Assembly: GCA_038521775.1 (NCBI GenBank)
Contig: JBCBKN010000082.1
Coordinates: forward strand, 1-14,018
Reading direction: 5' to 3'
Source of the DNA: Pseudomonadota bacterium
GTDB taxonomy: Bacteria > Pseudomonadota > Alphaproteobacteria > Rhodobacterales > Rhodobacteraceae
Length of the DNA: 14,018 nucleotides
The notes under the pieces are model-generated. The model was not told the DNA's origin, did no database searches, and saw only the letters and a program-made list of their open reading frames with translations. The translations under genes were made by a program, and so were the position numbers. Shown one piece after another: positions 2,627 through 7,609 of this stretch. Numbering within the stretch: position 1 is the stretch's first letter; every line of letters starts with the position of its first letter.

Positions 2627-2700
2627 CGGAGGCAAGGAGAGGAGTCGAACCTCTAACCAGCTGGCTTGCGCCAAATGCTCTACCATTGAGCTACGTTGCC
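2627..2700 (-). tRNA. tRNA-like gene with canonical acceptor, D and T arms but a non-canonical anticodon region; possible pseudo-tRNA or tRNA-like element, anticodon not assignable
   Basis: Minus-strand read: GGCAACG-TA-GCTC-AATGGTA-GAGC-AT-TTGGC-GCAA-GCCAG-CTGGTT-AGAGG-TTCGACT-CCTCT-CCTTGCC-T-CCG. The D arm (GCTC/GAGC), T arm (AGAGG/CCTCT with a TTCGACT loop) and 7 bp acceptor stem (one C-C mismatch) are intact. No register gives a 5 bp stem with a 7 nt loop carrying U33. Instead a 5 bp stem capped by the GNRA tetraloop GCAA forms. Confidence 0.5.
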
Positions 2701-2720: not shown

Positions 2721-2907
2721 AGCATCCGCTTGCGCAAGACCCCAGGCATACGGTCCCGGCAGGGCCGGGGCGCACCGGCGGAGTGTGGACCTCCGGCCAT
2801 ATGGGTGACCTGCGAAAGTGCGGAGCGGCGGGGTAACCGCATCGCCCCATTTTCGCCAAACTGTTTCTGCGCCGCGGCTGTGCCGGGCTGGACCTGTTGC
2901 AGATATG

Positions 2908-4449
2908 CTACGCCATGCCGGAGGGGTGCGGAGCCCTGTCGACTGCGGCCATCTCGGCACGCGCCAGCGCCTCCATCAGCTCGGCCCGCATCGCCATGTG
3001 GTCCGGATCGTCCCAAAGATTGCGGAACTCGCCGGGATCGGTTTGCAGATCGTAAAGCTCGCCCCAGCTCAGCCCGTGAAAAAGCGTCAGGCGCCAGCGC
3101 GCCGTGCGCAGGCTGTGCACCCGTGGCGCGCGGCCCAGCGCGGGCATGTCGCGCTGGTTGTCAAACTGGATGAAGGCCGCGTCACGGCCGGTTGCAAGCA
3201 GATCCTGCCCCTGCACGCCGAGGGCTGCTTCGATTCGCGCGCGCTCGAGAATCGTCGGGCCGATATCGTGGGTCTGGCCGATGGCACCGGTCCGGCCCGT
3301 GGTCGGCCGTTCCGGATCCGCCCAGATGAAGGGCACCCGGGTGAGCTGCTCATACTGCTCGGCGCCTTTCAGCAGCAGACGGTGATCGCCCAGATGATCG
3401 CCGTGATCGGAGGTGAAGACCGTCACCGCCTCGGCCGCCTTGGGGGCCGTGCGCACCTGCCCGACCGCATCGTCGATCATGCCGATCATCCCGCAGGTCA
3501 GTGCCCGCGCCTCCTGCGCCTCGCGCGCGCTCACCGCAATCGTGCCCATGCCGCCAAGTGCGGCCTCGCCCGCGGCACGCTGGGCGATCATGCCGGCCAC
3601 ATGCGGCGGCGGCGTCCAGTCATTGACCGAAAACGCCTCGGGCACCGCCATCTCCTCGGGCCGGTAAAGGTCCCAATAGCGCCCGGGCGGGTTGAAGGGA
3701 TGGTGCGGGTCGGGGAGGGAGACCATCAGAAAGAAGGGCTGATCGCCGGTCTGGCCGCGCAGCCAGGCCTCGGCCCGGTCGGCGATATAGCGGGTGACGT
3801 AGAGCTCCTCGGGCAGGGCGGTGCGCACCGCCTGCGGGCAGATATAGTCATGCGGGATCTCGTTTTCGGCCCCCACAAGCTGGTCGGCCAGAGGCTCGCG
3901 CGCCAAAAGCCAGCTGCGGTAATCCCCGCCGCAGAAATCGCCATGGCCGGTGACCAGCTCGACATGGTCAAAGCCATAGAACGGGGTGCCGGGCGCGGCC
4001 TGACCGGGCGCCTCCTGCCGGTAGCCGGCATCATGCCCATGGCGCATCGCCTCGGCCAGATCGCCCGCGGCGCGATGATAGCCAGGGCGCGTCTGCGGCG
4101 GTTGCAGGATGGCCGGCCGGCCGGTGAAGTTCTGCAGATGGCTTTTGCCGATCAGCGCCGTGCGATAGCCCGCATCGCGCAGCAGCTCCACAAAGGTGAC
4201 ATGCCGTGTGTCGAGCGGAATGCCATTGGAGCGCACCCCGTGGCTTGAGGGCAGGCGCGCGGTCATCAGGCTGGCCCGGTTGGGCATGCAGACCGGGCTT
4301 GCCACATAGAACCGGTCCCAGACGGTGCCGGCCGCGGCGATGGTGTCGATATTGGGGGTGCGCAGCACCGGATGCCCCATACAGCCCAGATAATCGGCGC
4401 GATGCTGGTCAGTGATGAAGAGAATGAAACTCGGCCGGCGATCGGTCAC
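2908..4449 (-). CDS. Sulfatase family protein (Cys-type, C-x-P-x-R motif CMPNR), about 513 aa, with no signal peptide
   Basis: ORF 2908..4635(-) trimmed to GTG at 4447-4449, which has a GAGGA RBS 7 nt upstream and overlaps the upstream gene's TGA stop (ctGTGAcc). The N-terminus PSFILFITDQHRADYLGCMGHPVLRTPNIDTIAAAG...ASPVCMPNRASLMTAR...LIGKSHL is the classic sulfatase N-terminal domain with a formylglycine-target motif. Confidence 0.85.
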   Translation of the reverse strand: MTDRRPSFILFITDQHRADYLGCMGHPVLRTPNIDTIAAAGTVWDRFYVASPVCMPNRASLMTARLPSSHGVRSNGIPLDTRHVTFVELLRDAGYRTALIGKSHLQNFTGRPAILQPPQTRPGYHRAAGDLAEAMRHGHDAGYRQEAPGQAAPGTPFYGFDHVELVTGHGDFCGGDYRSWLLAREPLADQLVGAENEIPHDYICPQAVRTALPEELYVTRYIADRAEAWLRGQTGDQPFFLMVSLPDPHHPFNPPGRYWDLYRPEEMAVPEAFSVNDWTPPPHVAGMIAQRAAGEAALGGMGTIAVSAREAQEARALTCGMIGMIDDAVGQVRTAPKAAEAVTVFTSDHGDHLGDHRLLLKGAEQYEQLTRVPFIWADPERPTTGRTGAIGQTHDIGPTILERARIEAALGVQGQDLLATGRDAAFIQFDNQRDMPALGRAPRVHSLRTARWRLTLFHGLSWGELYDLQTDPGEFRNLWDDPDHMAMRAELMEALARAEMAAVDRAPHPSGMA

Positions 4450-4979
4450 AGCAGATCCTCGATGAACAGACCCAGATATTGCGCGCGTCCCGACACGCCG
4501 GCCTTTCGAAAAACGGCATTCGACTGTGCCTTGATGGTGCCTTCGCTGGTTTTGCGCAACTCTGCGATTTCCGAATTGGCAAAGCCCTTGAGCATGAAGA
4601 GCGCCACATCGCGCTCGGACGGTGTCAGCCGCCATTGCGCGAACCGGTCCTGCACCACGCCGTGAAATTCCGAGGAGGCCGCGCGCAGACGGTCGGCCGC
4701 GCGCTTGCGCTGGCGCAGCAGCGTTGCGGTCAGGATGGCGCCCATCGCCATGCCCAGCAAGAGCCCGGTGGTGGCCATGATCTCCAGCGCCTCATGCCAG
4801 CTCCAGCTCACCGGCGCGTCGCGCCAGCCGAAAATCGAGGCGGCGAGGTCATAGACAAAGAACACGCCGCAGAGCGTCTGAAGCGTCGCAACCAGGATCA
4901 CCGCGACCGGGCCGCCCCAGCCGCCCTGCAGGTCGCGCGGTCCGGTGACGGGGGGAGGCTGATGCTGGGGCTCAGTCAT
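4446..4979 (-). CDS. LuxR/GerE-family HTH transcriptional regulator anchored by two N-terminal TM helices (about 177 aa); alternative start 3 codons upstream at 4988
   Basis: C-terminus LTPSERDVALFMLKGFANSEIAELRKTSEGTIKAQSNAVFRKAGVSGRAQYL is a GerE-type HTH. N-terminus has two hydrophobic helices (PVAVILVATLQTLCGVFFVYDL and IMATTGLLLGMAMGAILTATLL) flanking a short Trp-rich loop. The ORF-track N-terminal extension (MSNRALAHPKRTT...TRIQTRIQ...) is an out-of-frame read of the upstream gene's repeat tract and is rejected. The start ATG overlaps the upstream gene's end (ATGACTGA). Confidence 0.75.
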   Translation of the reverse strand: MTEPQHQPPPVTGPRDLQGGWGGPVAVILVATLQTLCGVFFVYDLAASIFGWRDAPVSWSWHEALEIMATTGLLLGMAMGAILTATLLRQRKRAADRLRAASSEFHGVVQDRFAQWRLTPSERDVALFMLKGFANSEIAELRKTSEGTIKAQSNAVFRKAGVSGRAQYLGLFIEDLL

Positions 4980-5526
4980 CGCCGCCATCTGAATCTGAGC
5001 CCGAATCCGAATCCGAGCCCGAGTCGCTGTCGGAATCCGAGTCGCTGTCAGTGCCCGAATCGCTGTCAGTGTCGGACCCGCTGTCTGTATCCGTGTCTGT
5101 ATCCGTGTCTGAGTCAGTGTCCGGGCCGTCCGCATCGTCCCGATCTGCGTCGTCCCTGTCGTCTGTGTCGTCCCGGTCTGTGTCGTCCCCATCATCCCTG
5201 TCGGCCGGGTCTCTGGAGCGATCCTCAAAATCCTCGGGATCGCGGCCGGGCTGGAACGGGCTGAAATCGCGGTTGTTCTCTTGGGATGTGCCAGCGCTCG
5301 GTTGGACAAGATCGCGCAGCACTTCTCCGGTGCGGGGGTTGATGATCAATTCACGCCGGTATCCATCGCGGGTCGCCTCGATCTGCACCCGGCCGAGCCA
5401 GGTGCGCTCGACCTCCACAATCTCATAGCCCTGCTCTTCAAGGAATGTGATCGCCGCCGCGGTGGCATCGGCCCGCGACGGTTCGGCCGCAAAAAGCAGC
5501 AGCATGATCAGCAGGGCACGGTGCAT
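4972..5526 (-). CDS. Secreted PepSY-like domain protein with a roughly 85 aa Asp/Ser/Thr-rich acidic repeat tail ending ...SDSDGGDD (184 aa)
   Basis: Sec-type signal peptide MHRALLIMLLLFAAEPSRA. The PepSY-like core ITFLEEQGYEIVEVERTWLGRVQIEATRDGYRRELIINPRTGEVLRDLV follows. The tail runs DRDDGDDTDRDDTDDRDD...DTDSDTDTDTDTDSGSDTDSDSGTDSDSDSDSDSGSDSDSGSDSDGGDD. A GGGGAG RBS lies 6 nt upstream of the ATG at 5524-5526. Confidence 0.75.
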   Translation of the reverse strand: MHRALLIMLLLFAAEPSRADATAAAITFLEEQGYEIVEVERTWLGRVQIEATRDGYRRELIINPRTGEVLRDLVQPSAGTSQENNRDFSPFQPGRDPEDFEDRSRDPADRDDGDDTDRDDTDDRDDADRDDADGPDTDSDTDTDTDTDSGSDTDSDSGTDSDSDSDSDSGSDSDSGSDSDGGDD

Positions 5527-5549
5527 TCAGGCTCCCCGGCTAAAGCTGT

Positions 5550-5579
5550 GGGTCCCACCCGGCGGCGCAGATGGGACCC
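5550..5579 (-). promoter_or_regulatory. Intercistronic hairpin (8 bp stem gggtccca/tgggaccc, 14 nt loop) between the DRDD-repeat gene and the PepSY-like gene; possible partial terminator or attenuator
   Basis: Seen directly in the 68 bp spacer between the stop at 5595 and the start at 5526. It is followed on the minus strand by ACAGCUUUAGCC (weak U content) and precedes the GGGGAG RBS. Confidence 0.3.
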
Positions 5580-5594
5580 GATCCCGCGATGGGC

Positions 5595-5894
5595 TTAATC
5601 ATCGCCGCCGTCACTGTCACTGTCACTGTCGGAGTCGCGATCGTCCCGGTCATCCCTGTCGTCGCGATCATCCTTGTCGTCCCTGTCGTCGCGATCATCG
5701 CGGTCGTCCCGATCATCGCGGTCATCCCGATCGTCGCGGTCCAGCAGCCCGACGGTGTTTTTGGCAGCGGTGTCGAGCGTGTGACCGATCCGGCTGAAAA
5801 GGCCCGCAATGCCGGTCTCATCCGACGCGGCCGGGGTTGCGAGCGGGGCGAGCAGCACGGCCAGGGCCAGGGCTGGGAGTTTGAGCTGGGTCAT
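5595..5894 (-). CDS. Small secreted protein (99 aa) with about 11 tandem DRDD tetrapeptide repeats and a C-terminal DSDSDSDSDGGDD
   Basis: Signal peptide MTQLKLPALALAVLLAPLATPAAS, a 30 aa unique segment, then (DRDD)n with one DKDD variant. The AGGACAAGGACG RBS region lies upstream of the ATG at 5892-5894. The underlying DNA is a 12-nt-unit tandem repeat plus (gtcact)3. Confidence 0.7.
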   Translation of the reverse strand: MTQLKLPALALAVLLAPLATPAASDETGIAGLFSRIGHTLDTAAKNTVGLLDRDDRDDRDDRDDRDDRDDRDDKDDRDDRDDRDDRDSDSDSDSDGGDD

Positions 5895-5958
5895 CTGTGG
5901 CGTCCTTGTCCTGTTCGACCGACGGCGGGATGCCGTGGCCGGTCCGACAAAACGCGGT

Positions 5959-5986
5959 CCGGCATGGCATGCGCCATTGGCCGGCA
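5959..5986. promoter_or_regulatory. Near-perfect palindrome CCGGCATGGC-ATGC-GCCAT(TG)GCCGG plus adjacent direct repeat CGGTCCG-N9-CGGTCCG, 45-90 bp upstream of the DRDD-repeat gene; candidate operator
   Basis: Inverted repeat seen directly. The sequence from 5939 is ccggtccgacaaaacgcggtccgg. Its position fits a regulator-binding site in the module's promoter region. Confidence 0.25.
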
Positions 5987-6040
5987 GTTTGGGGCGCGGC
6001 TTCTAAACCCTTGTGAGCATACAATAAACCGGGGTTTAGC

Positions 6041-7261
6041 CTAAAGATCCTCGTTCAGGGCCTCGGCCACGGTGAAGATGTCCTTGTCGCCGCGCCCGCA
6101 CATATTCATGACCAGCAGATGGTCGGCGGGCAGATCGGGCGCGATCTTGGCGACATGGGCCAGCGCGTGCGAGGGTTCGAGCGCCGGGATGATCCCCTCG
6201 GTCCGGCAGCTCAGCTGGAAGGCCGCCAGCGCCTCCAGATCGGTGACCGAGACATATTCGACCCGGCCGGTGTCGTGCAGCCAGGCATGCTCGGGCCCGA
6301 TGCCGGGATAGTCGAGCCCGGCCGAGATCGAATGCCCCTCCAGGATCTGGCCGTCCCCGTCCTGCAAAAGATAGGTGCGGTTGCCATGCAGAACGCCGGG
6401 GCGGCCGCCGGTCAGGCTGGCGCAATGCTCCATCCGGTCATCGACGCCATGCCCCCCCGCCTCGACCCCGATGATGCGCACCGCGCTGTCGTCGAGGAAG
6501 GGGTGAAACAGCCCCATCGCGTTCGACCCGCCGCCGATACAGGCGACCAGGCTGTCGGGCAGGCGGCCTTCGCGCTCGGCCATCTGGGCCTTGGTCTCGC
6601 GCCCGATCACCGATTGAAAATCGCGCACCATCGCCGGGTAGGGATGCGGGCCGGCCACCGTGCCGATGCAGTAGAACGTGTCGCGCACATTGGTCACCCA
6701 GTCGCGCAGCGCCTCGTTCATCGCATCCTTGAGCGTGCCGCGCCCGGCGGTCACCGGCACGACCGTCGCACCCAACAGCTTCATGCGAAAGACATTGGGC
6801 TTTTGCCGCTCAACATCGGTCGCGCCCATAAAGACCACGCAGTCCAGCCCGAAGCGCGCGCAGACCGTGGCCGTGGCAACCCCATGCTGGCCCGCGCCGG
6901 TTTCGGCAATGATCCGGGTCTTGCCCATGCGGCGCGCAAGCAGGATCTGGCCCAGCACATTGTTGATCTTATGCGCGCCGGTATGGTTGAGCTCATCGCG
7001 CTTGAGATAGATTTTCGCACCGCCGAATGCCTCGGTCAGCCGCTCGGCAAAGTAAAGCGGCGAGGGCCGGCCGACATAATGCGTCCAGAGATCCTGCATC
7101 TCGGCGGCAAAGGCCGAGTCGGTCCTGGCCTTTTCATACTCGGCCTCAAGGTCGAGGATCAGCGGCATCAGGGTTTCGGAGACAAAGCGCCCGCCGAACA
7201 TGCCGAAGCGGCCCTTTTCATCCGGCCCCGTCCGGTAGGAATTGATCCTGTCACTGGCCAT
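6041..7261 (-). CDS. trpB: Tryptophan synthase beta chain (406 aa)
   Basis: [33 protein letters not shown]...[11 protein letters not shown]...[16 protein letters not shown]...[11 protein letters not shown] is unmistakable TrpB with its PLP-binding motifs. ORF 6041..7588 trimmed to the ATG at 7259-7261, which has a GGGAGG RBS 6 nt upstream. Confidence 0.95.
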
Positions 7262-7435
7262 ACCGCCCTCCCTTTTGCGCTGTTCTACCGCCCTGTCGGG
7301 GCATGGTCGAGAGGCTGGGCGCCGCAGCCGCGCGCAGACGGGCGCAGACGGGCGCCTGGCCGTGTTGGCGGGCACAGCGCGTGGCGCAAGCCTGCGCGAT
7401 GGTGCCTCGGTGCTTTGCGAAAGGGGCGAAAGGCG

Positions 7436-7585
7436 ATGCTGGTGGTTGCACTGATGCTGGGCGGTCCGATGCTGTTGACCGCCGCGCTGGCCTTTTGGGT
7501 GGAGATTTGCCGTCCGATCCGCAGGGCACGGCGCCGGGCTGGGTCCAAAACCCCGGCGGGTGCTCCTCGCCCCCGCAACGACTGA
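7436..7585 (+). CDS. Speculative small membrane protein (49 aa; one TM helix then an Arg-rich tail) on the plus strand inside the trpF-trpB spacer
   Basis: An ATG preceded by gaaaggggcgaaaggcg (AAAGG RBS at about -5). Peptide is [49 protein letters not shown], with GC3 about 78%. It is the only plus-strand candidate in the window and could equally be chance. Confidence 0.2.
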
Positions 7586-7609
7586 CATCGCGCGTCGGGG
7601 TGGGGATGC

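Follow-up and report, generated by a model that had tools for sequence, protein, structure and literature searches.

A Rhodobacterales cassette encoding PepSY-like acidic secreted proteins and a membrane-anchored LuxR-type regulator

The DNA analysed here (the window) is the 14,018-nucleotide contig JBCBKN010000082.1 of GenBank assembly GCA_038521775.1, a metagenome-assembled genome of a bacterium of the Rhodobacteraceae. Its positions 4446–6040 are one copy of a Rhodobacterales-wide cassette, normally located downstream of trpB, that consists of an operator/promoter region, two genes for secreted proteins, which we call X and Y, and a gene for a membrane-anchored LuxR/GerE regulator with two transmembrane helices, called LuxR below. 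In the window, trpB ends at 6041 on the minus strand and is followed on the same strand by X (5595–5894), which encodes an acidic protein of 99 amino acids in a short form that lacks a PepSY domain, by Y (4972–5526), which encodes a PepSY-like protein of 184 amino acids, and by LuxR (4446–4979, with its ATG at 4979 and its end at 4446). An operator-like palindrome, TAAAC-N4-GTTTA, occupies 6025–6038, three nucleotides past the trpB stop and ahead of X.

The genes are tightly packed. The stop of Y and the start of LuxR share eight nucleotides (ATGACTGA), and the TGA of LuxR shares four (GTGA) with the GTG start of a Cys-type S1 sulfatase gene (2908–4449, minus strand; GTG at 4449, end at 2908), which has a GAGGA Shine-Dalgarno sequence 6 nucleotides 5′ of the GTG. 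X and Y are separated by a 68-nucleotide spacer (5527–5594). All four open reading frames, both overlaps and the spacer are where a preliminary description of this DNA had placed them, GC content by codon position is compatible with real coding in all four genes (GC3 0.69–0.82), and the genes are real. The same description had noted a hairpin in the spacer. A hairpin with a 12-bp stem is present at 5550–5579 (minus strand), but its folding is ordinary for the GC content (z = −0.6 relative to shuffled sequences) and no T-run follows on its 3′ side; 5527–5594 contains no terminator-like site, and the hairpin was rejected as an intrinsic terminator.

A three-gene cassette downstream of trpB

Searches with LuxR gave 616 homologous proteins at E ≤ 0.001. 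At least 590 LuxR-bearing stretches are present in a collection with one genome per species, and every named organism among them belongs to the Rhodobacterales, including Pontivivens, Actibacterium, Celeribacter, Tabrizicola, Rhodobacter, Thioclava, Roseovarius, Marivita and Halovulum. The neighbouring genes were mapped by tblastn and local jackhmmer in 85 loci drawn from the ~590 Rhodobacterales matches (loci carry L numbers below). A gene for a PepSY-like secreted Y protein lies immediately 5′ of LuxR on the same strand in all 85, and trpB is found farther upstream, again on the same strand, in 61 of the 66 loci with enough DNA. Between trpB and Y, a second gene for a PepSY-like secreted acidic protein (X) is present in 49 of 73 loci, and most of the remainder have, like the window, a short X without a PepSY domain (e.g. 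L001, L002, L017, L022 and L084). The overlap of the Y stop with the LuxR start was found again in 14 loci. As the genes 3′ of LuxR are convergent and unrelated in most genomes (among them pth, ileS and the genes for L25, for a globin-like protein and for one of ~125 residues), LuxR is the final gene of the cassette. In the nearest clade trpA comes after the cassette; in most genomes it is elsewhere, or inverted 6–8 kb away.

These data alter the preliminary picture of the locus, in which four genes, the sulfatase included, formed one module located at a local break in trp gene synteny. The association of Y with LuxR, for which that description had proposed a search of other genomes, holds throughout the sample, but the four-gene module does not: the sulfatase directly follows LuxR in one of 79 loci, that of the window. 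Nor is the position after trpB a break in synteny, since it is the usual Rhodobacterales arrangement. The statement that no named operon matches was upheld by our literature and family searches. We found no publication describing the cassette, and the public names of its proteins are limited to “hypothetical protein”, “PepSY domain-containing protein” and “LuxR family / helix-turn-helix transcriptional regulator”.

Tandem duplicates of the Y–LuxR pair occur in eight loci (L043, L046, L050, L054, L062, L070, L081 and L083). For LuxR, likeness is 0.75 between same-position copies across genomes versus 0.59 between the two copies within one genome; for Y the corresponding values are 0.61 and 0.48. 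The cassette was thus duplicated as a unit. An anti-phage defence role was considered and rejected, PADLOC having given a weak match at the level of the helix-turn-helix (HTH) for LuxR alone and none for the other five proteins.

The membrane regulator and its operator-like palindrome

The only significant Pfam match of LuxR is GerE (PF00196; 26.9 bits versus a gathering score of 23.5), with Sigma70_ECF remaining below threshold at E 0.078. In an AlphaFold2 model (predicted local distance difference test score 87.6), a first transmembrane helix (residues 22–50) and an 8-residue loop (51–58) are followed by one unbroken helix (59–115), which comprises the second transmembrane segment and a cytoplasmic stalk, and then by a four-helix domain. 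The transmembrane hairpin (residues 22–87) is encoded at 4719–4916, with the 8-residue loop on its outer side and the stalk helix reaching residue 115, and the HTH (residues 118–177) at 4449–4628. Basic residues come after the second transmembrane helix, which is compatible with a topology in which both ends of LuxR would lie in the cytoplasm. Foldseek superposed the four-helix domain on the DNA-binding domains of NarL, VraR, RcsB, LiaR and DosR, with template modelling scores of ~0.8 to those of VraR, NarL and DosR. Pfam and the model thus agree with the preliminary description that this is a two-helix membrane LuxR with a GerE domain alone. LuxR therefore belongs neither with quorum-sensing LuxR proteins nor with two-component NarL/FixJ regulators, as Pfam finds no receiver or autoinducer-binding domain and residues 1–115 consist of the two transmembrane helices and the stalk. 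As modelled, it has a predicted DNA-binding domain and at least one predicted transmembrane region, and so fits the definition of a transmembrane transcription regulator (PMC10269533). Its best NCBIfam match is NF047608, the LIC13292 family of transcriptional regulators, which covers the stalk helix and HTH (residues 87–177); at 66.3 bits against a cut-off of 200, and with the transmembrane part unmatched, LuxR falls outside this family, on which we found no publication.

Alignment of 23 homologues showed two clusters of invariant residues. Pro56, Trp59, Glu63 and Glu66 are in the outer loop and at the membrane edge, and Thr144, Gly147, Thr148, Lys150, Gln152, Arg158 and Lys159 are in the recognition helix. 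Such a nearly invariant recognition helix fits a conserved half-site.

The palindrome at 6025–6038 is the sole match to TAAAC-N4-GTTTA in the window, where 0.01 would be expected by chance, and no second operator-like site was found there even when three mismatches were allowed. Exact copies number 73 across 1.09 Mb of related loci and come from 65 of 84 loci as well as from the window; each of them is located 0.5–2.1 kb upstream of a LuxR gene, and the region from −1800 to −300 relative to LuxR contains one in 59 of 73 loci. Where trpB is distant (L019, L048, L059, L045), the palindrome remains with the cassette, and in seven of the eight loci with tandem duplicates each copy has a palindrome of its own, five of the eight first copies sharing the spacer GAAG (TAAAC-GAAG-GTTTA). 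Because the palindrome tracks the cassette in this way, the cassette is more than an appendage of the trp operon and possesses a conserved control region of its own. When 72 upstream regions are aligned, their consensus extends beyond the palindrome (cGCaTAAACc..GGTTTAtGcgC ... GGTtTA ... tAAACC ... caAT.g), and the window fits it with further elements on the minus strand between 5974 and 6008, namely GTTTA at 6004–6008, CAAAC at 5987–5991 and CAATGG at 5974–5979. The motif does not appear in a paper on the regulatory network of R. sphaeroides.

Metagenomes were scanned for regulon members with the 20-nucleotide pattern GCATAAAC-N4-GTTTATGC. Of its 120 matches, 91 were in unrelated low-GC contigs; among the 29 in contigs with a GC content of at least 0.52, 14 were the cassette itself and the remainder lay in unrelated contexts or at contig ends. 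The pattern also occurs in many human-gut contigs of ~45% GC (among L085–L164), often at similar contig positions, which may point to a conserved element, unrelated to the cassette, in a gut organism. A separate observation concerns the RNA of the trpB–X intergenic region (5895–6045, minus strand), which folds at −59.5 kcal/mol and is more stable than shuffled sequence (z = −2.4); this may reflect a leader structure or just the palindromes.

Secreted acidic proteins and flanking genes

X contains 32 Asp among its 99 residues and has a pI of 4.07. A signal-peptide-like N-terminus and a short conserved helix-like segment precede a tail of about ten DRDD units that ends in SDSDSD-GGDD. It has no Pfam match, and its orthologue in L084 is 50% identical, the non-repetitive N-terminal part included. 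Y (pI 4.05) consists of a PepSY-like domain (residues ~20–78, encoded at 5293–5469) and an acidic DT/DS/DR tail (residues 79–184); like that of X, this tail is built of tandem repeats.

Of the three profile matches that the preliminary description had proposed to look for, those to GerE and to the sulfatase family were obtained above cut-off, but Y stays below the threshold of the PepSY models (PF13670 PepSY_2 / PF03413), scoring 18.7 bits for PepSY_2 versus a gathering score of 24.3. Four other Y proteins behaved similarly (20.7 bits for that of L001 and no match for three), whereas some X paralogues pass the threshold (43.9 and 27.9 bits). A sequence-profile search of the PDB with the X and Y domains gave matches at chance level only (e.g. 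ribosomal S3 and designed proteins) and was uninformative, so that a fold search was needed. This comparison bore out the PepSY-like fold that had been proposed for Y, one helix being packed on a four-stranded antiparallel sheet as in solved PepSY domains. The X and Y domains are homologous to each other (profile against profile in hhalign, probability 99.2%, E 9e-20). The N-terminus of Y alone gave two matches in a word-indexed protein search, which was repeated with an alignment. Y is the more constrained of the two proteins, with five invariant columns versus none in X; its invariant residues include Arg46, Arg58 and Arg71.

The tails of Y have a median length of ~74 residues and contain 36% Asp and Glu, the acidic fraction exceeding 30% in 63 of 92. 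At the extreme, in L078, an acidic tail of the cassette has up to ~70 Asp in a row. A twin-arginine-like RRxFL motif is found ahead of 57 of 93 Y domains versus 5 of 54 X domains, and MKRRxFLxGL-type N-termini are found in, for example, the Y proteins of L005, L009–L011, L016, L079 and L080. These leader sequences suggest that Y is exported by the twin-arginine (Tat) route and X by the Sec route, although the leader of Y in the window looks to be of the Sec type.

DNA that encodes Asp repeats can mislead gene callers into choosing the antisense strand. At L001 5976–6440 the called gene, a 154-residue Val/Ile/Thr-rich open reading frame, is the reverse complement of the real X gene, and in the window an antisense frame spans 5447–6044 on the plus strand. 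The X, Y and sulfatase sequences of the window were not found in the protein collection searched. Given the antisense calls and the absence of the window's X and Y, the two genes are probably under-annotated in public genomes.

The sulfatase scores 133.9 bits against PF00884 and carries the C/S-x-P-x-R motif of S1 formylglycine sulfatases as CMPNR; it has no N-terminal signal peptide, so that its earlier description as a signal-less Cys-type enzyme holds. Its PDB relatives number 51, with choline sulfatase at the top and 4upl and 4upi (Sulfatase family protein) matching nearly the full length. GTG 4449, with its good Shine-Dalgarno sequence, is the nearest in-frame start codon, and a longer frame from 4635 would overlap the part of LuxR that encodes the HTH. 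In the closest relative, L084, whose LuxR is 88% identical, the same cassette is present and its 8-nucleotide overlap is kept, but the sulfatase is missing; ~200 non-coding nucleotides follow the LuxR stop and lead into a match to window positions 2751–2778, just upstream of a tRNA-like gene. As the flanks align over only 28 nucleotides, the exact boundaries of a sulfatase insertion are not definable. Since L084 and 78 of the 79 loci have no sulfatase, the simplest account is that this lineage acquired the gene recently, the alternative being a loss in L084. Its co-translation with LuxR in this organism is likely from the overlap, with no bearing on the cassette in general.

The minus strand of the window reads aroA, cmk, rpsA, ihfB, lapA, trpF, trpB, X, Y, LuxR, sulfatase, tRNA-like gene and SPFH gene (1095–2237). 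Relatives have an acetyltransferase or short-chain dehydrogenase gene between trpF and trpB (L001 4013–4471, L002 3861–4625, L003 2065–2829), which the corresponding gap of the window (7265–7609) does not contain. The tRNA-like gene (2628–2700, minus strand) matches the Rfam tRNA model at 48 bits, but ARAGORN assigns it no anticodon, its anticodon arm being a 5-bp stem with a GCAA tetraloop. Homologous genes at L022 8802–8873 and L059 4738–4886 have the same D and T arms and different anticodon arms. Apart from the window, these two loci alone have the SPFH gene, and in both the tRNA-like gene lies directly upstream of it. The gene may be a pseudo-tRNA or specify a tRNA-derived RNA, or the window copy may contain a 1-nucleotide assembly error.

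A model for the cassette, alternatives and known systems

Combining these findings, we propose, with about even confidence, that the cassette is an autoregulated envelope-signalling unit in which a minimal, membrane-tethered LuxR has Y as its partner in the periplasm and cations are captured by the poly-Asp tails. LuxR would sit in the membrane with both termini in the cytoplasm, and the helix formed by its second transmembrane segment and stalk would carry the GerE HTH, so that a LuxR dimer could bind the palindrome and regulate the cassette itself. On the periplasmic side, the PepSY domain of Y, through Arg46, Arg58 and Arg71, would dock on Pro56, Trp59, Glu63 and Glu66 of LuxR in a charge-complementary contact. 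The tails of X and Y would bind divalent or other cations or polycations, and their loading state would alter the Y–LuxR contact and with it the dimer geometry and DNA binding of LuxR. Sensing of Ca2+ or another metal is plausible, as PepSY proteins that bind metals are known (PMC9988556). In this organism the sulfatase, probably co-translated with LuxR, would now be under cassette control. Taken further, and more tentatively, the cassette may represent a new design of signalling in the Rhodobacterales: a two-helix LuxR almost devoid of a sensor would read the periplasm via an often Tat-exported PepSY partner, the tails of this partner and of a second secreted paralogue would serve as an antenna for cations or polycations, and autoregulation would proceed via TAAAC-N4-GTTTA.

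Several observations weigh against this proposal. An acidic composition is lacking in 13 of the 92 Y tails, which mainly belong to first copies in duplicated loci (in the six of the eight such loci where the first-copy tail was read, it is non-acidic and rich in Ala, Gly, Ser, Thr and Pro), and cation capture by the tail therefore cannot be essential to the core pair; database homologues of Y, moreover, are often only ~100 residues long and short-tailed. The exposed loop of LuxR, at ~8 residues, is a small docking surface. Signal peptides were assessed by eye and by motif search only, a regulator other than LuxR could bind the palindrome, and the 120 metagenome matches yielded no further target genes.

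X and Y might instead be the regulated product: as polyanions in the periplasm they would buffer cations, store them or supply fixed negative charge, for which osmoregulated periplasmic glucans offer a comparison, while LuxR would only set their level, sensing the state of the membrane or envelope through its transmembrane hairpin without touching Y. The extreme tails, up to the long Asp run of L078, their freedom to vary in length and repeat type as bulk charge carriers would, the cassette's own operator and the failure of neighbourhoods and metagenome scan alike to reveal other targets all agree with such a role. We consider it rather unlikely, however, as the PepSY domain of Y is conserved far beyond the needs of a charge carrier and always adjoins LuxR, and paralogous cassettes retain Y and LuxR yet lose the acidic tail. 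Another possibility, which we hold to be improbable, is that Y acts by shielding LuxR from a protease, the signal removing Y and intramembrane proteolysis then freeing the HTH; PepSY-type inhibition in M4 propeptides and the proteolytic release known for anti-sigma factors or TcpP/TcpH are the analogies, and the guarding of their partners against proteolysis by TcpH and ToxS counts in its favour. PepSY has furthermore been described as a protease-inhibitory domain (PMC9988556). The neighbourhood of the cassette contains no conserved protease gene, however, the outer loop of LuxR is very short for a site-1 cleavage, and the unbroken helix of the model is more suggestive of a piston or a dimer transmitter.

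The two remaining explanations are disfavoured by the distribution data. The preliminary description had read the four genes as a functional operon whose circuit exists to control the sulfatase. Although the GTGA overlap and the Shine-Dalgarno sequence make co-expression likely in this organism, a gene that follows LuxR in a single locus and is missing from an 88%-identical relative, in which the sequence beyond LuxR connects to that just upstream of the window's tRNA-like gene, makes this very improbable for the cassette. Similarly, we see hardly any likelihood that the cassette is functionally part of tryptophan biosynthesis, regulating trpB and trpA or being regulated with them. In the nearest clade it is indeed flanked by trpB and trpA, and almost everywhere it comes after trpB, but where cassette and trpB lie apart (L019, L048, L059) the operator is found with the cassette, trpA is elsewhere or inverted in most genomes, and the exported proteins have no evident link to tryptophan synthesis.

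The order Rhodobacterales, whose members are major heterotrophs of marine and fresh waters, has kept this three-gene cassette and its operator across hundreds of species. Under the signalling model, the cassette offers a compact case for how a membrane-tethered regulator without a sensor domain could read the periplasm via a secreted partner, and it suggests that poly-aspartate proteins may help to sense or buffer cations in the periplasm. The picture of the window is corrected in that the sulfatase is a passenger outside the circuit, and the operator provides a handle for experimental work on cassette control.

Transmembrane regulators with adjacent periplasmic partners are known from ToxR/ToxS, TcpP/TcpH, VtrA/VtrC and PsaE/PsaF (PMC10269533). 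As in these systems, the cassette places the gene of an inner-membrane DNA-binding protein beside that of a small exported partner, with no kinase or phosphorelay. LuxR itself is not ToxR-like, however. In the regulators of those systems an OmpR-type winged helix at the N-terminus is combined with a single transmembrane helix and a folded periplasmic domain, whereas the architecture of LuxR is reversed, with an N-terminal two-helix hairpin, an exposed part reduced to the 8-residue loop, and a C-terminal GerE-type HTH; the partners differ too, being PepSY-like proteins with poly-Asp tails. With the LuxR/FixJ/NarL regulators LuxR shares an above-threshold GerE domain, a four-helix domain that fits NarL, VraR, RcsB and LiaR, and a palindromic putative target, but its input module is a membrane hairpin in place of a receiver or autoinducer-binding domain. 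For the secreted proteins, the closest parallels are UipA of Microbacterium (uranium and iron) and LanP of Methylobacillus (lanthanides), acidic metal-binding PepSY proteins (PMC9988556, PMC8963506). Both are small and strongly acidic, exported or membrane-anchored, and bind several metal ions. The charge is placed differently: acidic residues line the PepSY domains of UipA and LanP, whereas the cassette proteins have theirs in extended, disordered tails of Asp, and their PepSY domain contains arginines that are invariant.

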